64,000 nt of DNA from an uncultured Haloferula sp. (GTDB taxonomy: Bacteria > Verrucomicrobiota > Verrucomicrobiia > Verrucomicrobiales > Akkermansiaceae), in the NCBI GenBank assembly GCA_965652295.1, contig CBFGTS010000019.1, positions 1 to 64,000 of the forward strand, given 5' to 3'. A model generated the notes under the pieces. That model searched no databases. It was not told where the DNA came from and was given only the letters and a program-made list of their open reading frames with translations. Positions 2,477 to 43,696 of the stretch are shown here, one piece after another; within the stretch, counting starts at the first letter, position 1; each line of letters opens with the position of its first letter. Both the position numbers and the translations under genes were made by a program.

Positions 2477-2677
2477 AATGGAGAACGCCGGCGCTTTGAC
2501 AGCCGGTCCGGCCGCTTTGCGGTCCATGTCATCCCACCCCATGACCTCCGGGCACCCGGGGTCTTTCCCGTTTCCCTGTCCGCTCCGTCTTCGGACGCCG
2601 GGCCCCTTTTCCATTCACACCATTCCTATCATGATTCTTCTGAATTCCGTCCCGAAACCTTCAGCCCCCACCCGGCC

Positions 2678-5224
2678 ATGATCGCCCGTTTTTTCCCTGC
2701 CTTCGTTGGAAAAAACGAGCGTGAGCTGGCGCGGATCCGCCCGCTGGTTTCACGCATCAACCGCCTCGAGGAAACCCTGCACAGCGAGCCGGACGAGGCT
2801 CTTCGCCGTCGTGTGGACGAGTGGCGCGGCCAGCTCGGCGGATGGGAGGCCGACGATGAATCTGCCGCCGTCGCCCGCGCCCGCTACCTCGAGAAAATCC
2901 TGCCAGAGGCATTCGCGGTGGTGAAAAACGCGGCCCGCAGGATGAGCGGACGCGAGGTCGAGGTGTGCGGACAGAACATGCTCTGGAACATGGTGCATTT
3001 CGACGTCCAGCTCGTCGGCGGCATTGCGATCCACCGCGGTCTGATCGCGGAAATGCAAACCGGAGAAGGCAAGACGCTGGTCGCCACGCTGCCCGTCTTC
3101 CTCAACGCGCTGACCGGCCTCGGCGTCCACGTGGTGACGGTGAACGACTACCTGGCACGCCGCGACTCGGAATGGATGGGTGAGCTTTTCCGTTTTCTCG
3201 GTCTGACCGTGGGCTGCCTGCAGAACGACCAGGATCCGGAAGTACGGCGTGAGCAGTACCAGTGCGACATCACCTACGGCACGAACTCGGAATTCGGCTT
3301 CGATTACCTGCGCGACAACGGCATCGCCCATACCGCGGCCGAGCAGGTACAGCGCGGCCACTACTTCGCGATCATCGACGAGGTGGACTCGATCCTGATC
3401 GACGAGGCCCGCACGCCGCTGATCATCACGGTCCCCGGAAACGACGCGGCCGGTCCTTTCGTGCGGAACAAGCCCGCCGTCGCCCGCCTGGTCCGCAAGC
3501 AGACGGACCTCTGCAACGGCTTCGCCAGCGAGGCCAAACGACTCATCGGAGCCGGCGATATGGCCGCGGCGGGGGTCGAGCTGCTGAAATTGAAGCTCGG
3601 CCAGCCTCGGCACCGCCAGTTCCTGCGATTGATGGAGCAGCCCGAGCTGCGGCGGTTGGTGGACAAGACCGAACTCGCTTTCCATCGCGGCCGCTCCGGA
3701 CGGACCCTCGTCCAACTCAAGGAGGAGTTGTACTTCTCCATCATCGAGAAGGACCGCGATGCCGCTCTCTCCGAAAAGGGGCGGTGTTTCCTCTCACCCG
3801 ACGATCCGGACGCCTTCACCGTGCCCGAGCTGGAACCGGATGCAACCGAGGTCGAGCGAATGAACTTCGGCGCACGGGCCGGAGAGATCCATGCGATCTC
3901 GCAGTTGTTGAAGGCCTATTGTCTGCACGAGCGCGACGTCCATTACGTCGTCCGCGGAGGCAAAGTGACGATCATCGACGAGAGCACCGGCCGGGAAATG
4001 CCGGGCCGGCGGTGGTCGGACGGCCTGCACCAGGCGGTTGAGGCGAAGGAAGGCGTGAAGATCGAAAGCGAGAACCGCACCTGCGCGACGATCACCATCC
4101 AGAACTACTTCCGGCTCTACGATAAACTGGCAGGCATGACCGGCACGGCGGAGACCGAGTCGGCGGAATTTCACGACATCTACCGGCTCGACGTGCTGCC
4201 GGTCCCGACTCACCGGCCGAACATCCGGATCGACGGAAACGACTGCCTTTTCCGAACGCGGGCGGAGAAGTTCCAGGCAGCGGTGGAGAAAATCCGGAGA
4301 GTTCATGGAACCGGCCAGCCGGTGCTGGTCGGCACCGCCTCGGTCGAGTCATCCGAAACGCTATCGCGCCTGCTGAAGCGGGCGAAGATCCCGCACACGG
4401 TGCTCAATGCGAAGAATCACGAGCAGGAGGCGGCGATTGTGACGAGAGCCGGAGAGAAGGGGGCGGTTACCGTTTCCACCAACATGGCCGGCCGCGGCAC
4501 GGACATCAAACTGGGTGAAGGCGTGGCCGAACTCGGAGGGCTTTTCGTGATCGGGACCGAGCGTCACACCTCACGACGGGTGGACCGCCAGCTCCGTGGC
4601 CGGTGCTCCCGCCAGGGCGACCCGGGGTGTGCGCAGTTCTTCCTTTCGCTGGAGGACGACTTGATGCGCCACCACGCCGCGCCGAACCGGATGGCGGCGA
4701 TGATCGAGGAGTTCGCGGCCCGATCGCGAACGCTGACCGGCGGATCGTTGGGAAAACTCATCGAGGAAGCGCAGCAGCGCGTCGAACAGCACGGCTACAA
4801 GATCCGCAAGCAGGTGCTGGATTTCGACGACGTGATGAACCTCCAGCGGAGCATCGTTTACGGCTATCGAAACGAGGTGCTGCATGCGACGGACATGCGC
4901 GAGGTGGTGCGGGAAATCCTGGCCGTGGATGAAGTACGGCGAACAGCGTACGAAGAGCGCGTCGCCGCGTTGCCGGCGGAAATGCTGGCAGCGATCGAAC
5001 GGGCGGCGGTGCTCCAGGCGATCGACTGGCACTGGCAGAACCACCTCGATGACATGGAGGATCTTCGCGAGGGCGTTTACTTGCGCTCGCAAGGCCAGAA
5101 GGACCCGCTGGTGGAGTATAAGAACGAAGGCTACACGCTGTTTTCCGGATTGATGGAGGCAATCCGGGAGACGTCCGCCCGGAACCTCGAACGGGTGGCG
5201 GGACGAGTGCGGGGGGTGGTTTGA
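2678..5224 (+). CDS. secA: Preprotein translocase ATPase SecA, probably a second, shortened paralogue (848 aa)
   Basis: EMQTGEGKT, VTVNDYLARRD, IDEVDSILIDEARTPLII, GMTGTA, TNMAGRGTDIKL, QLRGRCSRQGDPG, QKDPLVEYK motifs; no C-terminal CxC...CC/H zinc motif. Confidence 0.95.
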   Translation: MIARFFPAFVGKNERELARIRPLVSRINRLEETLHSEPDEALRRRVDEWRGQLGGWEADDESAAVARARYLEKILPEAFAVVKNAARRMSGREVEVCGQNMLWNMVHFDVQLVGGIAIHRGLIAEMQTGEGKTLVATLPVFLNALTGLGVHVVTVNDYLARRDSEWMGELFRFLGLTVGCLQNDQDPEVRREQYQCDITYGTNSEFGFDYLRDNGIAHTAAEQVQRGHYFAIIDEVDSILIDEARTPLIITVPGNDAAGPFVRNKPAVARLVRKQTDLCNGFASEAKRLIGAGDMAAAGVELLKLKLGQPRHRQFLRLMEQPELRRLVDKTELAFHRGRSGRTLVQLKEELYFSIIEKDRDAALSEKGRCFLSPDDPDAFTVPELEPDATEVERMNFGARAGEIHAISQLLKAYCLHERDVHYVVRGGKVTIIDESTGREMPGRRWSDGLHQAVEAKEGVKIESENRTCATITIQNYFRLYDKLAGMTGTAETESAEFHDIYRLDVLPVPTHRPNIRIDGNDCLFRTRAEKFQAAVEKIRRVHGTGQPVLVGTASVESSETLSRLLKRAKIPHTVLNAKNHEQEAAIVTRAGEKGAVTVSTNMAGRGTDIKLGEGVAELGGLFVIGTERHTSRRVDRQLRGRCSRQGDPGCAQFFLSLEDDLMRHHAAPNRMAAMIEEFAARSRTLTGGSLGKLIEEAQQRVEQHGYKIRKQVLDFDDVMNLQRSIVYGYRNEVLHATDMREVVREILAVDEVRRTAYEERVAALPAEMLAAIERAAVLQAIDWHWQNHLDDMEDLREGVYLRSQGQKDPLVEYKNEGYTLFSGLMEAIRETSARNLERVAGRVRGVV

Positions 5225-5256
5225 TACTCCGGAGTAAAAAGGCCTGCTTTACCCGA

Positions 5257-6333
5257 TCATGGCTGCGGGGCGATGGCGGGCCAGCCGTCGTCCCAGAAGA
5301 TCTCGCGGATGCGGAGCTTGGCCTTGCCCGCGTCCTTGAGGTCGTAGGCGTGGAAGACGAGGTAGTCCTGGCCTTCGAAGGTATAGGCTGCGGGGTGCCC
5401 GGTGGCCGCCCAGTCCTCGCCATCGCCGGCAGAGACGAGGGTGCCGCCGCCGCGGACCATGCGCTTGCCTTCCTTGTCGAGGTAAGGCCCGCGGATGTCC
5501 TTCGCGCGACCGACGACGACCTTGTAGGTGCTGTTGACTCCCTGGCAGCAGCGGTCCCAGGAAGCGAAGAGATAATACAGGCCGTCCTTCCTGAAGATGA
5601 AAGGTGCCTCGATCGAGCCGCTCTTCATGGCCTTGTTGCGGGCGAGTTGCTCCGGGGTGTAGAGCGCGTCGTAGTCGAGTTCCGGGTTGGCGGAATCGCC
5701 CGCATCGCGCTCGTCCACGGCGAAGTCGCGCTGGCGCGAAGCGATGGTGTGCCATTCCGCCCCCGGTCCGGTGACAATACCGAGGAGGTCGGGCTGCATT
5801 TTCACTAGCTTCAGGCCGGTCCAGAACGATCCGAAGCTCATCCAGGGCGTGCCGTTTTCATCGAAGGCGAGGTTGGGATCGATCGCGTTCCAGAGGTCGC
5901 GGCCGGGCACCGACTGGACGACGATGCCGTGGTCCTTCCATCCGAAATCAGGGCTTTTGGGATCGAGCGTGACATTGGTGGCCACGGCGATGGCCGAAGT
6001 ATTCCGGCCGAAAGCGGAGACGGAGTAGTAGAGGTAGAAAGTGCCGTCGTGTTCGTGGATATCGGGAGCCCAGATGTTGCCATCGAAGCCCGGCGCGATG
6101 CCCTTCACCCAAGCCGGGGTTTCGGCGAAAACAGGTTTCTCCTCCTGCCACGAGTGGAGGTCGGTCGAGGATTTCACCCGGATGCCGGGTCCGGTGTAGA
6201 ACAGGTAATAGGTATCGCCCTCCTTCGCGATGACCGGATCGTGCGCCTCCACGGACCGATCCTGGGCGGTTGAGACGAGAGGGGTGAAAACAAGCAGGGA
6301 GGTGAGGAGTGCCAGTGGGTTTCGGGTTTTCAT
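5257..6333 (-). CDS. Secreted GH43 endo-1,5-alpha-L-arabinanase-like enzyme
   Basis: Signal peptide MKTRNPLALL; AHDP, WAPD, NAIDP, SFGSFW, IEAP, CC, GHP motifs. Confidence 0.88.
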   Translation of the reverse strand: MKTRNPLALLTSLLVFTPLVSTAQDRSVEAHDPVIAKEGDTYYLFYTGPGIRVKSSTDLHSWQEEKPVFAETPAWVKGIAPGFDGNIWAPDIHEHDGTFYLYYSVSAFGRNTSAIAVATNVTLDPKSPDFGWKDHGIVVQSVPGRDLWNAIDPNLAFDENGTPWMSFGSFWTGLKLVKMQPDLLGIVTGPGAEWHTIASRQRDFAVDERDAGDSANPELDYDALYTPEQLARNKAMKSGSIEAPFIFRKDGLYYLFASWDRCCQGVNSTYKVVVGRAKDIRGPYLDKEGKRMVRGGGTLVSAGDGEDWAATGHPAAYTFEGQDYLVFHAYDLKDAGKAKLRIREIFWDDGWPAIAPQP

Positions 6334-6392
6334 TTCCCCGTGGCTACGCGAGAGAGGCGCGTTTGTCAGGCAGCGATTCCTATCGGGATGAT

Positions 6393-6770
6393 CTACGTCT
6401 GCTTTCGATAGGGCACGACGACATCCTGCAACATTCCGAAATGCTTCGCATTCAGAGTGACGAGAGCGAGATGGTGTTGGGAGGCCGTGGCGGCGATCAT
6501 GCAATCCGCCAATCCGCAACCCATCAAAGTTCGGTAGTCGCGGCGAAACAGCCCAGCCACTTCGGCGATTTCCTCCGTCAGCGGAAGCACGGTGAGAGCG
6601 GAAAGGGTGGTGGTCAGTTTGGTTCTCTCCTGGCTTTCCCTCACTCCTTGGTAGAGTTCGGCAACGGTGACCGACGAGATATGGAGATGGTCGAGGTTTT
6701 GCTCCAGGAATTCAATCGCTTCGGCCCGTCCGCGGAGGAAATCGATCAAGACATCGGTATCGACGAGCAT
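6393..6770 (-). CDS. vapC: PIN-domain toxin (VapC family)
   Basis: LVDTDVLID, SSVTVAEL, LADCMIAATA, LVTLNAKHF PIN motifs. Confidence 0.9.
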   Translation of the reverse strand: MLVDTDVLIDFLRGRAEAIEFLEQNLDHLHISSVTVAELYQGVRESQERTKLTTTLSALTVLPLTEEIAEVAGLFRRDYRTLMGCGLADCMIAATASQHHLALVTLNAKHFGMLQDVVVPYRKQT

Positions 6771-6773
6771 GGC

Positions 6774-7004
6774 TTAAAAGCGGTCGAACTCTGCGCGGAT
6801 TTCCCGGAGGTCAAGATCCTCTCGATCGCTCCAGATACCGCATGCGGCGCGAAACCGGCCGAGCCGGTCCTGGGGACCCAAGCGTTGGAGATACTGGTCG
6901 ATCGCTTCCCGGATGACCTCGCTCTGCTTGCGTCCGGTGGTTCTCGCGACCCTCGCCACGCCTTGGACTTCGGCAGGGGTAAGGTAGATTTGCGTCCGGT
7001 TCAT
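6774..7004 (-). CDS. vapB: Ribbon-helix-helix (CopG-like) antitoxin
   Basis: RTQIYL beta strand, SEVIREAIDQYL helix, GIWSDRED tail; immediately upstream of the PIN toxin. Confidence 0.85.
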   Translation of the reverse strand: MNRTQIYLTPAEVQGVARVARTTGRKQSEVIREAIDQYLQRLGPQDRLGRFRAACGIWSDREDLDLREIRAEFDRF

Positions 7005-7019
7005 ACATCATGATGTATG
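7002..7019. promoter_or_regulatory. Perfect 18-bp palindrome CATACATCATGATGTATG, likely vapBC autorepression operator
   Basis: Self-complementary 18-mer overlapping the antitoxin start codon. Confidence 0.7.
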
Positions 7020-7097
7020 TCGATGAGGCGGTTCCGTCAAGAGCGGGAAAGAGAACTCCCCGCCCTCCTCGCAAACCAGAAGGTTCGCACCACTGCT

Positions 7098-8492
7098 TTA
7101 CCTCGCGGCGACGAGGTCGTAGCCGCGCCAGTCGTGGATGGTCACATCGGCGAATTCACCGACGGGGATGGCCTCATCGACGTGGACGGAGCCATCGATT
7201 TCCGGGGCGTCCCACTCGGTGCGGCCGACGCCGGGTTGCTCGACGAGGACGCGGACCTTTTTCCCGACCTGCTCCTGGTTGAGCTCGGCGGCGATGCGCT
7301 GGAGCTCGGCCATGGCACGGGACCAGCGGCTCTTGCGGGTCATGTGGTGGATCTGCCCGGCCATCTTGTAGGCCGGGGTGCCTTCTTCCTTGGAGTATTG
7401 GAAAACGCCGGCGCGCTCGAAGCGGAATTCACGGATGAACTCGAGGAGTTCCTCGAAGTCCTCTTCCGTTTCGCCGGGGAATCCTACGATGAACGTCGTA
7501 CGAATGCCGAGGCCGGGGATGCCGGCGCGCATCCGGCGGAGGAGGTTGCGGATGTAGTCGCCGTCGGTCTTCCGCTTCATGACCGTGAGCATGCGGTCGG
7601 AGATGTGCTGGAGCGGGATATCGACATATTTGGCGACCTTGTCGCACCCGGCGATGGTGGCGATGAGTTCGTCGGACCAGTGCGCGGGATGGGTGTAGAG
7701 GAGGCGGATCCAGAAGTCGCCTTCGATCTCGTTCAGCTCGCGCAGCAGCGAGGCGAGGGACTCGCCGCGGGTGGAATCGACGGGCGAGTTGGGGTTCGGG
7801 CGCCGGCCCTCCCACTTGTCCATGCCGAAGTAGGTGGTGTCCTGGGAGATGAGGTTGATCTCCTTCACGCCGGCGGCGACGAGATCCTTCACTTCGCGGA
7901 CCACGCTTTCCTGGGTCCGCGAGCGGTGCATGCCGCGGATTTTCGGGATGATGCAGAAGGTGCAGGTGTGGTTGCAGCCCTCGGCGATCTTGACGTAGGC
8001 GGAGTGGTCGGGCGTGAGGCGCCAGCGCGGGGTGTTGTAGTCGGGGACGTATTTCGGCTTGAGGGTGACGAAATCGCGCTCGTCATCGGTGGCGACGCCC
8101 TCGTCCTTCTGCGGGGCGGGCTTCTTGCCGACGAGGCCTTCGATGATCGGGGCGACCTTGGTGATCTGGTCGAGCCCGATGAAGGCATCCACCTCGGGCA
8201 TGATGCCGGGCAGTTCTTTGGCGAAGCGCTGCGAGAGGCAGCCGGCGACGATGATTTTCTGTTTGGCGCGATCCGGGTCCTCGGTGCGGGCGTTGGCGGC
8301 ACCGAAAATGGCATCGATAGACTCCTGCTTCGCCATGTCGATGAACGAGCAGGTGTTGACGATGAGGACGTCGGCCAGCTCGGCGTCCGGGGTGAGAGCC
8401 ATGCCGGCTTGTGCCAGGTGACCCATCATGACTTCGGAGTCGATGAGGTTCTTGGCGCAGCCGAGGGAAATGAGACCGACGGTGGTGGACAT
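7098..8492 (-). CDS. rimO: Ribosomal protein S12 methylthiotransferase RimO
   Basis: LGCAKNLIDSE, NTCSFI, AGCL, radical-SAM CNHTCTFC, DAPEIDG TRAM domain. Confidence 0.95.
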   Translation of the reverse strand: MSTTVGLISLGCAKNLIDSEVMMGHLAQAGMALTPDAELADVLIVNTCSFIDMAKQESIDAIFGAANARTEDPDRAKQKIIVAGCLSQRFAKELPGIMPEVDAFIGLDQITKVAPIIEGLVGKKPAPQKDEGVATDDERDFVTLKPKYVPDYNTPRWRLTPDHSAYVKIAEGCNHTCTFCIIPKIRGMHRSRTQESVVREVKDLVAAGVKEINLISQDTTYFGMDKWEGRRPNPNSPVDSTRGESLASLLRELNEIEGDFWIRLLYTHPAHWSDELIATIAGCDKVAKYVDIPLQHISDRMLTVMKRKTDGDYIRNLLRRMRAGIPGLGIRTTFIVGFPGETEEDFEELLEFIREFRFERAGVFQYSKEEGTPAYKMAGQIHHMTRKSRWSRAMAELQRIAAELNQEQVGKKVRVLVEQPGVGRTEWDAPEIDGSVHVDEAIPVGEFADVTIHDWRGYDLVAAR

Positions 8493-40172: not shown

Positions 40173-40245
40173 AAAAAAGAGGGGCCGCGCACTCACGCGG
40201 CCCCTATAGTGTCATGAAATTTGTTCCGGGGTTGCCCCTTCGGAT
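40173..40245 (-). ncRNA. Candidate small RNA copy 1 (~73 nt)
   Basis: Promoter upstream; 5' hairpin with GCAA loop; UUUCAUGACA linker; terminator stem + U-tract; diverged copy about 510 bp away. Confidence 0.65.
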
Positions 40246-40251
40246 GAGGGA

Positions 40252-40299
40252 AAGATGACGGGCTTTGGGAGGTCTGTCATGTCCCTACTTTTTGGGACA
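40252..40299 (-). promoter_or_regulatory. Promoter (-35 ATGACA, 17 bp, -10 CATCTT) with abutting TGTCCC-N8-GGGACA palindrome
   Basis: Elements and spacing conserved in copy 2 while the spacer sequence has diverged. Confidence 0.6.
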
Positions 40300-40317
40300 C
40301 GGCGGGGAAGGAGGCGC

Positions 40318-40551
40318 TCACTTCGCTTCGCCCGGTGGGAGGGTGCGTCCGACGACCGGCGGGCTACCGGGGAGGATCCCCGAGGAGGGATCGCCGGAGG
40401 TGCTGGTTTCGATGACCGCCAGTGCGTCCCGGAGCTTGGTGGCGAGGGTTTCCACGAGGTAGTCGTTGGCTGTGGCGGGCAAGCTCCGGCGGCCCAAGGC
40501 AGCGATGAGGATTTCGATCTCGGCGGGGGTGAGAGGAACGGGTGTGGTCAT
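40318..40551 (-). CDS. Small hypothetical protein (77 aa) between the two sRNA cassettes
   Basis: MTTPVPLTPAEIEILIAALGRR...; purine-rich AAGGAAAGG directly before ATG; amphipathic helices. Confidence 0.45.
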   Translation of the reverse strand: MTTPVPLTPAEIEILIAALGRRSLPATANDYLVETLATKLRDALAVIETSTSGDPSSGILPGSPPVVGRTLPPGEAK

Positions 40552-40682
40552 CCTTTCCTTCCGCACCTGACATGCCACCGCCCGGGACACCCGCCTACGG
40601 GCCGAACCTCCTTTTTTCACCCGCGCGTGCCGCGCACTCTGCATCCGCGCCACAGCGGGAGGGTGCAAGCTGCTCCGAAAGC

Positions 40683-40754
40683 AAAAAAATGGGGGCCGCG
40701 CACTCGCGCGGCCCCCGGTTGTCATGAAACTATTACCGGGGTCGCCCCGCGGAT
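40683..40754 (-). ncRNA. Candidate small RNA copy 2 (~72 nt)
   Basis: 5' hairpin with GCGA loop; UUUCAUGACA linker; terminator GGGGGCCGCGC-GAGU-GCGCGGCCCCC + U7. Confidence 0.65.
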
Positions 40755-40760
40755 GCTTGG

Positions 40761-40808
40761 AGAATGCGAAATATCTCGAAACCTGTCATGTCACTATTTC
40801 GGGGGACA
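40761..40808 (-). promoter_or_regulatory. Promoter (-35 ATGACA, 17 bp, -10 CATTCT) with abutting TGTCAC-N8-GGGACA near-palindrome
   Basis: Same architecture as 40252-40299. Confidence 0.6.
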
Positions 40809-40921: not shown

Positions 40922-43057
40922 ATGGCCAGCCGGTTCCCATTCCGCCTCCCTCCCGTGCCCTTTCTTGCGCTTGCTCTCGCACTGGGGCTCGCGGTGGCGG
41001 TGGTGTCGACCTGGCTGGCATTGCAGCCGGGATGGCTGGGCCTTCGGCTTAGGTGGACGGAAGAAGGGGCGCGGGTCGAGCGGGCGGTCGGGCCGGCGGC
41101 GGAGGTGCCTGTCGGAACGGTGGTGACGGAGATCGAGGGAGGCGGAGAGCGGTTGGAATTCGAGGCGCTTGATTTCGTGACGGAGCCGGACGGGATGATG
41201 GGGGACTACGGAACTTACCGTGTCTTTCTCGGGAGGCTGGACCGGCTGGCGGAAATCCAATCGGCGGAGCGAGTGAGTCTCGGCACGGACGGGCGTCGTT
41301 TGGAAATCCGACCCGCCCGGCGGGGGCGTCCATGGACGGACCTGCCGCCGGATTTCTGGGTGCAGGTGACGGTGGGGCTGGTCGCTTGGCTGGTCTCGGC
41401 GGCGGTGTTCGTTTTCCGTCCTGCGGACACCAGCGCGCGGTACTTGCTGCTGAGCGGGGCCGCGACGTTGCTGTTCGCCCCGGCGGCGGCCATTTACACG
41501 ACGCGGGAGCTGGGGATGGACGGCCGGGTGGTGCAGTGGGCAAGCGACTTGAATTTCCTCGGAGGCAGCCTGTTCGCGGCGAGCTTCGTGGGGCTGTTGC
41601 TCTACTATCCGCGGGCGATCGCGCCGCGCTGGGTGGGACGGGCGGTGGTCGCGCTGTTCGTGCTGTGGTTCGGCTTGCAGCAGGTGGAGGTGTTCGAATC
41701 GATGACCTTCGCCCGGCGCTTTCTGGTGATGCTGGCGGTGGTGGCGACCTTCGCGCTGGCGGGGGTGCATTGGTTTCAAACGCGACGCGACCCGGTCGAG
41801 CGTGCGGCGCTGCAGTGGTTCCTGCTTTCGTGGCTGCTGGGCACCGGGTTGTTTGCGGTGCTGATCCTGCTGCCGCAGATGTTCGGGGTGGATACCTCGC
41901 CGGTGCAGGGGTACGCATTCCTGCTCTTCCTGCTGGTGTATGGCGGGCTGGCTTTCGGGATCCTGAGGTTCCGGTTGTTCGAGCTGGGGGCATGGTGGCG
42001 GAGGATCGTCGCCTGGGCGGCGACGGCCCTGGTGCTGGTGTTGCTGGATCTGCTGTTTGTGGGAGGGCTGAACCTGTCCTCCGAGGTTTCCCTGGCACTG
42101 GCGGTGGTGATTTCCGGAATGCTGTGGCTGCCGCTGAGGGGCTTGATCTGGGAACGCCTTGCAGGACGGAACGGCGGGACACGGAACGCACGCTTCAGTG
42201 AGCTGCTGGAGGTGGCATTGGCATCGCGGGACGAGGCGGCAGCAAAGTGGCAGGCAGTCTGGCAAGGCGTGTTCGATCCGTTGCGGATCGAGCGCTCCGA
42301 CGAACCGGCCGGGATTCACGGAAATGGTCTGGCGCTGGTGGTACCCCGGGTGAGGGCGCTGGACGGGCTGCGGCTGGAATATGCGCGTGCGGGACGGGAT
42401 TTGTTTTCACCCCGCGATGCGGAAACAGCCCGGGAGATGGTCGACATGCTGCGACATGCCATGGAAAGCGTATCGGCCTATCGAAAGGGTGTGGAAGAAG
42501 AACGCGGGAGGATTGCGCGGGACGTGCACGACAATGTTGGAGCGCAGCTCCTCTCCGCGCTGCACAGCCGCGAGGCGGCGGGAAAGGACGAGCAGATCCG
42601 ACGGACTCTGACCGGGCTGCGGGAGATGATCCGCGACGCCCAGCCGGAGGCGGCGGAGGTGGGCGAGGTGCTGGCAGACCTGCGGTTCGAAACCTGCGAG
42701 CGCCTTGCGGCGAGCGGTCACGAACTTGATTGGGAGGAGGAGGAAGGGATGAGAGGCGGCCTGACACCGGCGACGGTCCATGCCCTGCGCTCGGTCGTGC
42801 GGGAGGCGGTGAGCAACGTGATCCGCCATGCCGGGGCCGGGACGGTGAAGGTCCGGGTGCGGCAAAACCACGGAATGCTGGACCTGGTCCTGACCGACGA
42901 CGGCCGGGGTTTCACCGCCGGCACGGACGCCTTTGGAAACGGTCTTGCCAACATGCGGATGCGCGTCGAAGAGCTTGGAGGTCGTTTCGCTGTGGAAAGC
43001 GGACCAGCGGGGACACGGGTGCGGGTGAGCCTCACCATCAGCCCGGCAGAGAACTGA
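40922..43057 (+). CDS. Membrane sensor histidine kinase (PDZ-like periplasmic region, multi-TM, HisKA_3/NarX-type)
   Basis: ERGRIARDVHDNVGAQL H-box, EAVSNVIRHA, DDGRGF, GNGLANM. Confidence 0.92.
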   Translation: MASRFPFRLPPVPFLALALALGLAVAVVSTWLALQPGWLGLRLRWTEEGARVERAVGPAAEVPVGTVVTEIEGGGERLEFEALDFVTEPDGMMGDYGTYRVFLGRLDRLAEIQSAERVSLGTDGRRLEIRPARRGRPWTDLPPDFWVQVTVGLVAWLVSAAVFVFRPADTSARYLLLSGAATLLFAPAAAIYTTRELGMDGRVVQWASDLNFLGGSLFAASFVGLLLYYPRAIAPRWVGRAVVALFVLWFGLQQVEVFESMTFARRFLVMLAVVATFALAGVHWFQTRRDPVERAALQWFLLSWLLGTGLFAVLILLPQMFGVDTSPVQGYAFLLFLLVYGGLAFGILRFRLFELGAWWRRIVAWAATALVLVLLDLLFVGGLNLSSEVSLALAVVISGMLWLPLRGLIWERLAGRNGGTRNARFSELLEVALASRDEAAAKWQAVWQGVFDPLRIERSDEPAGIHGNGLALVVPRVRALDGLRLEYARAGRDLFSPRDAETAREMVDMLRHAMESVSAYRKGVEEERGRIARDVHDNVGAQLLSALHSREAAGKDEQIRRTLTGLREMIRDAQPEAAEVGEVLADLRFETCERLAASGHELDWEEEEGMRGGLTPATVHALRSVVREAVSNVIRHAGAGTVKVRVRQNHGMLDLVLTDDGRGFTAGTDAFGNGLANMRMRVEELGGRFAVESGPAGTRVRVSLTISPAEN

Positions 43058-43066
43058 CATGCTGAC

Positions 43067-43696
43067 ATGGAAAGCGCATTGATCGTCGAAGACCTCGAAG
43101 AAACCCGCGATTGGCTTGCGGAGGTCGTACGGATGAAGTTTCCGGGCTGTCGGATTGATCTGGCGGCGACGCTTGGGGAAGGGAGAAAAGCGATTCAAGC
43201 CGGGTGCTTCGACCTCGCATTGATCGACATCGGTCTGCCGGACGGCTCCGGGCTCGATCTACTGCGGGAGTTGCACCTGAAAGCCCCCGGGACGCGCTGC
43301 GTGGTGACCACGATCATGGGAGATGATGCCATGATCGTTTCCGCACTGGCCGCGGGCGCGGCGGGGTATTTGTTGAAGGAACAGACGGCCGAGCAGGTGG
43401 GTCGGCATCTGGCGCAACTGGCCGAGGGCGAACCGGTGCTCTCCCCTTCGGTGGCACGACGTTTGATGGATCATTTCCGGCTCACCGGTCCTACCCGAGA
43501 AGGTGCGGAGAAGCTGACCGCACGCGAAATGGAAACGCTGGCGCTGATTGCCCGGGGATACCGCAACCGTGAGGTTGCGGAACGTCTGGGGGTGGCCCCA
43601 TGCACGGTGGCCAGCCATGTGAAATCGATCTATGCCAAGCTGGGCATCACGTCGCGCGCGGAGGCTTCGTGGCACGCGACGCGGCTCGGCCTTTGA
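43067..43696 (+). CDS. NarL/LuxR-family response regulator
   Basis: LIVED, LIDIGLPDGSG, GYLLK, LTAREMETL...TVASHVKSIYAKL HTH. Confidence 0.93.
   Translation: MESALIVEDLEETRDWLAEVVRMKFPGCRIDLAATLGEGRKAIQAGCFDLALIDIGLPDGSGLDLLRELHLKAPGTRCVVTTIMGDDAMIVSALAAGAAGYLLKEQTAEQVGRHLAQLAEGEPVLSPSVARRLMDHFRLTGPTREGAEKLTAREMETLALIARGYRNREVAERLGVAPCTVASHVKSIYAKLGITSRAEASWHATRLGL

Follow-up and report, generated by a model that had tools for sequence, protein, structure and literature searches.

A response regulator-linked family of sibling small RNAs in Haloferula and Luteolibacter predicted to pair with the start codon of a TIGR02597-like gene

Introduction

Several described small RNA (sRNA) systems resemble the one reported here. 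The Qrr RNAs of Vibrio need σ54 and Hfq; qrr1 lies beside the gene of its regulator, as does the third copy of the present family, and the other qrr genes are dispersed. According to the sections of the literature cited, the csRNAs of Streptococcus (ccnA–E, CiaRH regulon) occur as 2–6 sibling copies, tandem and dispersed, in a host without Hfq; a response-regulator box defines their promoters, an unpaired anti-AUG region lies between two stem-loops, and repression is additive (PMC3091779, PMC4507080). FopS of Bacteroides thetaiotaomicron pairs with start codons on surface operons (PMC11697453, in the part cited). In the relevant part of PMC4211561, Qrr1–5 of the LuxO regulon are response-regulator-activated siblings that repress by pairing, and OmrA and OmrB of E. 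coli are tandem siblings that, under a two-component system, repress envelope proteins.

Here we describe an apparently undescribed family of predicted sRNA genes in Haloferula and Luteolibacter bacteria. Like the csRNAs, it has tandem and dispersed siblings, a promoter that a response-regulator box is predicted to define, a host without an Hfq match, a predicted dose effect, and an anti-AUG linker between two stem-loops, predicted to be fully open in the first copy and about half unpaired across the family. By contrast, CiaR recognizes a direct repeat, NTTAAG-N5-TTTAAG, whereas all 117 cassettes collected here carry an inverted repeat for a NarL-type regulator; the csRNAs, as described in the cited sections, have an anti-Shine-Dalgarno stretch, of which the conserved core here, an 8-mer only, has none; and the present family belongs to another phylum, has no Rfam match and has one conserved target visible by co-variation. 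In the cited account of FopS, the seed is the single-stranded 5′ end with the terminator right behind it, the promoters are canonical with no known regulator, and many SusC genes are targets. The seed described here is internal, behind a predicted hairpin in 117 of 117 cassettes, a response-regulator box is predicted, there is one TIGR02597-like target, and Rfam gives no match. Unlike Qrr, the family has a σ70-type promoter (−35/17/−10), no Hfq match, a Response_reg + GerE regulator, a secreted protein rather than a master regulator as target, and no conserved complement at the regulator's own start. OmrA and OmrB, as far as the cited section describes them, differ in binding Hfq, in their conserved 5′ and 3′ ends and in their OmpR-family regulator, and they have no sequence match here. 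Sequence alone yielded the RNA and its target together with a likely activator and a likely sensor; the family is predicted to work like the csRNAs, FopS and Qrr, but it belongs to none of them. It bears on sRNA repression in bacteria that have no Hfq and rarely use Shine-Dalgarno sequences, and on the co-evolution of sRNA–target pairs, and it offers a first handle on TIGR02597-like proteins. Searches in the main texts of the open-access literature found no regulatory small RNA described for these bacteria and no paper on this RNA.

Two predicted sRNA cassettes in the window

The window, that is, the whole 64,000-nt stretch of uncultured Haloferula sp. DNA analysed, contains two diverged direct repeats on the minus strand, about 510 nt apart. 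An earlier note had pointed them out, and the RNA sequences that it gave for both copies, the base-pair differences between these, the promoter spacers of 17 nt and the 6-nt gap from −10 to +1 were read back from the minus strand as described. Absent from its description were a 20-bp palindromic regulator box upstream of each promoter and the link of this box to a response regulator (RR).

All features of both cassettes lie on the minus strand. In copy 2, the box (TGTCCC-N8-GTGACA, 40789–40808), centred at −44.5, is a predicted RR site. It overlaps a predicted σ70-type promoter at 40761–40789, comprising the −35 element ATGACA (40789–40784), 17 nt and the −10 element CATTCT (40766–40761). The predicted sRNA of ~71 nt (40684–40754) consists of a 5′ hairpin, a seed linker and a terminator. 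Its seed, UUUCAUGAC, occupies 40721–40729 and, counting its flank, is perfectly complementary over 10 nt to the start of the target gene (C10:180420); the intrinsic terminator (40684–40716) has an 11-bp stem (40716–40691) followed by a U run. Copy 1 has its box (TGTCCC-N8-GGGACA) at 40280–40299, again centred at −44.5, and a predicted promoter at 40252–40280, with ATGACA at 40280–40275, 17 nt and CATCTT at 40257–40252. The sRNA of ~73 nt (40173–40245) is predicted from fold and conservation; its seed, also UUUCAUGAC, at 40211–40219 is a 9-nt perfect complement to the target start, and its terminator (40173–40205) has an 11-bp stem (40205–40180) and a U run. In both copies, the palindrome, TGTCCC-N8-G(G/T)GACA, ends on the base with which the putative −35 element begins.

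In the predicted folds of copies 1 and 2, a linker joins a 5′ hairpin to an 11-bp terminator; against 200 shuffles, the folding z-scores are −4.05 and −3.76, respectively. A terminator caller called both intrinsic terminators. The seed of copy 1 is predicted to be single-stranded, with a probability of being unpaired of 0.92–0.99. A scanner for consensus σ70 promoters called none at either copy; the two promoters are predicted to be weak σ70 matches, for which the evidence is their conservation.

Between the copies lies a 77-codon ORF (40318–40551, minus strand) preceded by a purine-rich stretch. It is 71% identical to an ORF in one relative, which there too precedes an sRNA copy; 23 synonymous and 21 non-synonymous codon changes separate the two over 73 codons. 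The ORF had no Pfam or NCBIfam match. It is probably a small gene outside the RNA family.

Range and anatomy of the RNA family

The full pattern of box and seed has exactly three matches in the 4.37-Mb genome to which the window belongs (98% complete). Thus, the earlier proposal of siblings held but its count of two did not: a third copy is located on another contig (C2:25576–25700), directly behind a gene encoding a Response_reg + GerE (NarL/FixJ-type) protein. A reversed control pattern had no match in 61 genomes. The box pattern occurred in 22 of 34 genomes of the same genus and in none of 26 others. With a looser pattern, matches were found in 25 of 30 own-genus genomes and 29 of 68 genomes of a sister genus; the remaining 202 genomes of the taxonomic family yielded three single matches, in other genera. 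Searching related genomes with a covariance model of the RNA, as the earlier note had suggested, gave 1–7 model matches per genome. An order-wide search with the model found weak terminator matches, lacking box and seed, in three genomes outside the taxonomic family, and no weak match outside the two genera had a box.

The claim that these RNAs form a multicopy sibling family assignable to no known RNA family was likewise supported. Scanning the window and six loci with Rfam covariance models gave no match at gathering score; the same holds for the models of csRNA, FopS, Qrr and OmrA-B. The best weak match, ctRNA_pGA1, scored 24.6 bits as against the 45 needed and covers essentially the terminator.

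We collected cassettes by their box rather than by their seed. This yielded 131 boxes, 117 of them with a called terminator; of the other 14, five are cassettes overlooked by the terminator caller. The set of 117, which includes paralogues and close kin, has the palindrome TGTCCC-N8-GGGACA upstream throughout. The core UUCAUGAC is exact in 96 of the 117 cassettes. It forms an island of 1.6–1.9 bits per position between flanks of at most 0.8 bits, and the conserved island is the 8-mer core only. This core sits 22–30 nt ahead of the terminator loop in 115 cassettes, and the seed lies 22–70 nt from +1. The conserved promoter geometry proposed for copies 1 and 2 extends to the family: the letters of the spacer vary and its length is kept, and in the −10 element A is present in 111 and T in 102 of the 117. 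All 10 terminator pairs show double-sided changes and 98.9% of the cells are paired, in an alignment that was fitted to the model and of which 7 of 97 rows are antisense. A 5′ hairpin is predicted in every cassette; RNAalifold found no 5′ stem common to the family. The GNRA loops of copies 1 and 2 differ in the way that had been noted, but as a family feature they fell away, being present in 22 of 117 cassettes. On average, about half of the seed is predicted to be unpaired. The predicted RNAs are 71–90 nt long, and some copies carry duplicated hairpins or motifs. The cassettes have a predicted promoter and a terminator of their own and no conserved ORF: beyond the internal AUG, the reading frame varies from copy to copy.

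Predicted regulator of the cassettes

In 71 of 80 loci from relatives, the box is found within 900 nt behind the RR gene, often in tandem copies. The RR is 79–95% identical across 80 named records. Most of these records are Haloferula, Luteolibacter and Akkermansiaceae bins, and the system can accordingly be assigned to the Verrucomicrobiota. In a weight-matrix scan of the own genome, the three sRNA boxes were the only strong sites, and no wider protein-coding RR regulon was found. Two genomes without the RR (E ≤ 1e-80; G001 and G031) are also without a cassette, and G011, in which the closest RR is only 61% identical, has no cassette. In 55 of the 80 loci, a HisKA_3 membrane kinase with a periplasmic galactose-binding-like domain is encoded directly upstream of the RR; the orthologue of this sensor in the own genome is at C4:254426–256759. 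A dyad centred at −44.5 is compatible with class II activation by NarL-type dimers. From the position of the box and its co-occurrence with the RR gene, we infer that the RR binds and activates there. The RR's own start has no conserved seed complement.

Two further candidates were considered in the window. A membrane HisKA_3 kinase and a NarL-type RR are encoded at 40922–43696 on the plus strand, divergent from copy 2. This pair is probably not the regulator: it stands beside no other fetched copy. A GH43 gene near the window copies was found beside no other fetched copy either.

The fixed place behind the RR gene bears on the possibility that the cassettes are non-functional repeated DNA, either REP- or MITE-like or orphan promoter–terminator units, whose complementarity to an mRNA is an inherited coincidence. 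It would fit this explanation that the promoters are weak matches, that the cassettes are known here purely as sequence, and that a REP-like family in the own genome also contains the seed complement. REP and MITE elements, however, exist in many dispersed near-identical copies, as against three copies in this genome, and in 71 of the 80 loci from relatives a cassette occupies that fixed position. Preserved promoter spacing between varying spacer letters and a covarying terminator also speak against mere repeats. We consider this explanation highly improbable.

Boxes resembling the RR site were seen in other settings. In G014, G012 and G019 (L014, L029 and L018), they belong to a REP-like repeat, GGAG-TGTCGCC...GGCGACATGA. 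Others stand before genes in G001, G025, G028 and G011. Within G001 C1:472000–545000 (L002, L025, L423), TGTCAC/TGTCCC-N8-GTGACA palindromes are clustered before genes, in the absence of the RR; these are probably sites of a paralogous regulator.

Seed–start complementarity and co-variation

One gene, encoding a TIGR02597-like secreted protein, has a start, GUC-AUG-AA, to which the conserved core is complementary. In the own genome, this start is at C10:180420, and its perfect complement to copies 3, 2 and 1 is 11, 10 and 9 nt long, respectively. The suggestion that the linker is directed against a start codon has gained a named target, with whose start the seed co-varies. The target is not unique in the own genome: among 3296 called starts, 4, 6 and 17 equal its pairing length for copies 3, 2 and 1, respectively. 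A duplex-energy ranking within this genome missed the target because the gene caller had skipped the gene, and the start-codon statistics accordingly rest on rough gene calls; the ranking favoured a norB-like gene, a PBP gene, argF and uppP, which were then rejected for lack of conservation. The own target start is predicted to be partly structured (probability unpaired 0.35–0.80 at −4 to +2).

The target family was first spotted at four loci by a seed-complement filter: over the fetched loci, four genes of one family start GTC-ATG-AAA, and one of them passes the TIGR02597 cut-off. Further members were gathered by protein searches that took no account of the start context; these placed the main member in 75 genomes, 54 of which also have the sRNA. 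The main member was picked by N-terminus and score; five without a placeable Met were dropped and seven paralogues set aside. In 46 of the 54 genomes with sRNA, positions −3 to −1 read GTC. For comparison, the own genome has GTC ahead of 80 of its 2818 ATG starts, and of 20 homologues from other families a single one has it.

Across the 54 genomes, the longest perfect complement over the start averaged 9.9 nt for cognate pairs versus 8.5 nt when genomes were shuffled (0 of 20,000 permutations), a significance that is overstated because the permutations treat kin as independent. The control genes PBP, argF and uppP showed no cognate excess (2571–7781 of 10,000), and the target in the same genomes as the controls did (16–21 of 10,000). 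The behaviour of the controls is a further point against inherited coincidence. Watson–Crick matches occur in all 54 genomes at −1, in 53 at −2 and in 53 at −3; at −4 they occur in 40, with 22.6 expected. Pairing spans 8–13 nt across target positions −5 to +7, and the duplex would cover the AUG itself in nearly all genomes.

Since kin are not independent, the firmer count is that of changes on the RR tree. On this tree of 52 genomes, the context has departed from GTC on four separate occasions, and every time the seed matches the new context: GTA with UUUCAUUAC (G004 and G030; GUA/UUAC), ATC with UUCAUGAUU (G199 and G248; AUC/UGAU), GTT with AUAACAGGA (G205 and G234; GUU/UAAC) and ATT with UUUCAUAA (G206; AUU/CAUAA). 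To these four lineage changes the firm count adds register shifts in G207 and X131. In G207, letters have been lost from the seed and the duplex, of 11 nt, is shifted upstream. As evidence for a trans-acting sRNA, this natural compensation between seed and target, present in four lineages, is unusually clear. The natural seed variants are also ready-made specificity controls, which makes the system directly testable in cultured Haloferula or Luteolibacter.

Individual genomes extend this picture. Pairing covers at least 13 nt in G078, and in G078 and G259 an sRNA copy adjoins the target. In G262, G264 and G265, the target context is ATT and no cassette follows the RR gene. The sRNAs of these genomes were found elsewhere via the box, only after the target contexts had been read; they carry UUUCAUAA and pair over 10, 10 and 8 nt, respectively, with the target start. 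As in G206, these three genomes have a second 9-nt pairing site at about −33. In addition, an RR box stands in the leader of the target gene itself (L439, L430, L422), which suggests direct transcriptional control alongside the sRNA. G251 is an exception, with the context ACC-AUG-AAC and only 6 nt paired. A seed-type start context is also retained in G001, G011 and G031, for which the searches gave no sRNA. The context can thus be kept in the absence of the RNA, which may reflect recent loss, an assembly gap or another constraint.

A second pairing site was considered as a general feature and rejected: the family-wide excess is small (5.96 versus 5.54; 15 of 20,000) and clear only in the AUU lineage. 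In the own genome, 9 nt pair between the 5′ end of copy 1 and the target leader. We also discarded the ideas that the core mimics a sense AUG, serves as a kissing palindrome or encodes a small peptide, since variants such as UUCAUUAC and UUCAUAAC break the sense AUG and the palindrome and keep the pairing.

The co-variation also helps to judge whether the RNAs are decoys of the CsrB/RsmY kind, titrating an RNA-binding protein that recognizes UUCAUGAC, with further copies adding sites. An RR regulon that appears to consist of sRNA genes only, the 1–7 model matches per genome, the duplicated hairpins or motifs of some copies and the RRM proteins encoded in the genome are all in keeping with such a role. 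A decoy should nevertheless resemble an mRNA site rather than complement it, and here the motif and the mRNA letters complementary to it have changed together, in lineages separate from one another. CsrB/RsmY RNAs carry repeated GGA loops and have CsrA or RsmA as partner; the present RNAs have one conserved motif, which co-varies with an mRNA, and no CsrA match was found in the own genome. We therefore give a decoy function very little credence.

Of 49 genomes, 20 have a second palindrome, GTGAC-N6-GTCAC, in the leader of the target gene; in the own genome, it lies ~75 nt upstream of the C10:180420 start (L389). It may be the site of another regulator, or an RNA hairpin.

Target protein and its locus

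The own target protein has 323 residues and, read by eye, a signal-peptide-like start. It is 14–38% identical to its homologues, among which the leader and N-terminus are conserved, and the GC3 of its gene is 0.55, as against a genome median of 0.82. NCBIfam gave no TIGR02597 match for it. Relatives that share its leader and N-terminus reach 181 and 240.6 bits, and another scores only 31.4; an Atlas neighbour of the target is named TIGR02597 at 0.97. Because relatives score and the own protein does not, we call it TIGR02597-like. Of 201 genomes from the order, 109 encode such proteins, and searches in the main texts of the open-access literature found no paper naming TIGR02597. The protein had no Pfam match. 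Its AlphaFold model is mostly β (pLDDT 79.5); Foldseek found no match to the model at E ≤ 0.001, and in the VIA fold comparison the best Z of 7.8, with an rmsd of 2.2 over 69 residues, was to a common barrel.

The target gene is followed by a PEP-CTERM gene. In three of three relatives mapped (G026, G017 and G005), the order is target, PEP-CTERM gene, sensor kinase, RR and 2–3 sRNAs, on one strand behind a pfkB-type kinase gene. In G016, G024 and G029, the target and sRNAs lie within about 9 kb of each other, and in the own genome the parts of the locus are scattered over four contigs. Judging by its signal-peptide-like N-terminus and its PEP-CTERM neighbour, the target probably is a variable protein of the cell surface; that it is an S-layer protein is only a possibility.

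Proposed mechanism

That the core changes in step with the target start across dozens of genomes makes it likely that the RNAs block translation of the target. We propose that RR-activated, trans-acting sibling sRNAs pair over the AUG of the TIGR02597-like mRNA and thereby block translation initiation, a reading to which we assign a probability of roughly 0.8. The sensor kinase (C4:254426–256759) would phosphorylate the RR encoded on C2 directly upstream of copy 3. An RR dimer, judging by position and co-occurrence, would then bind TGTCCC-N8-GGGACA at −44.5 and activate the weak σ70 promoter. Transcription would yield an RNA of 71–90 nt in which the 5′ hairpin and terminator are predicted to flank an exposed seed. 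As the co-variation implies, this seed would pair with the target mRNA (C10:180420) over 8–13 nt between positions −5 and +7, and covering the AUG would repress translation. Extra sRNA copies likely add dose. The host would achieve this with little use of Shine-Dalgarno sequences and without Hfq, CsrA or ProQ: these three had no match in the own 98%-complete genome, and GGAG is present in 4.6% of its leaders. Four RRM_1 genes are encoded. The commonest start context is C-ATG-AAA (199 of 2817); like the GGAG figure, this count rests on rough gene calls, in which the target gene was skipped.

Alternatively, the pairing may be real and its outcome other than steric repression of one gene: recruitment or exclusion of an RNase or RRM protein, stabilization of the mRNA, or an abundant mRNA acting as a sponge that determines how much free sRNA is left for other C-AUG-AA starts. 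The frequency of C-ATG-AAA would allow many weak secondary targets, and the genome has its four RRM genes. For Bacteroides, the cited part of PMC11697453 describes an RRM protein, RbpB, that counteracts FopS. A further point is the 15-nt complement of copy 3 to a norB-like gene; this gene turned up in just 2 of 35 genomes and lacks the context in the second, and the contexts of PBP, argF and uppP are not conserved. Moreover, the predicted duplex includes the AUG in almost every genome, and the RR box in the target leader of three genomes fits two arms that both act on the target gene. We judge a different outcome unlikely.

A broader reading would join these elements into a self-contained surface-coat circuit. 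The kinase, with its carbohydrate-binding-like sensor domains, would read the cell surface, and the whole output of the RR would be dose-scaled sibling RNAs. These would shut off the main hypervariable coat protein, perhaps an unrecognized verrucomicrobial S-layer or coat and possibly a phage receptor, by start-codon pairing alone, independently of Shine-Dalgarno sequences, Hfq, CsrA and ProQ. In one lineage, rewiring to a two-site duplex and an RR box in the target leader would make a feed-forward loop. We offer this circuit as a speculation that is doubtful as a whole; repression at the AUG of the TIGR02597-like gene is the reading we favour.

Other complementary starts and repeats

Several further starts were considered. 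Exact complements at the PBP, argF and uppP starts occur in 1, 3 and 3 of 30 genomes, respectively, and we rejected these genes as conserved targets. The norB-like gene was likewise set aside; its count of two among 35 genomes was obtained with a 45-residue query, and its 15-nt complement to copy 3 is present in the own genome only. The first 45 residues of its product (L141/L142; G000 C3:150857, and G027) are identical in two species and were not detected in the other 33 genomes, which suggests recent transfer. The starts of msrA and msrB (L148, L149), cox3 (L152) and a globin gene (L164) in the own genome are complementary to the seed, exactly or with wobble pairs, and these genes are possible species-specific secondary targets.

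At L049 (G080), a seed-like word and a terminator, without a box, lie directly behind a gene that we take to be an L28 ribosomal protein gene. In the own genome, a REP-like family, GTGG-CATGACCGTCCCGGTCATG-AA, has 45 matches with at most two mismatches on many contigs (e.g. C13:31683 and C9:74631). The repeats often form inverted pairs, and the seed complement lies inside the repeat's own hairpin.
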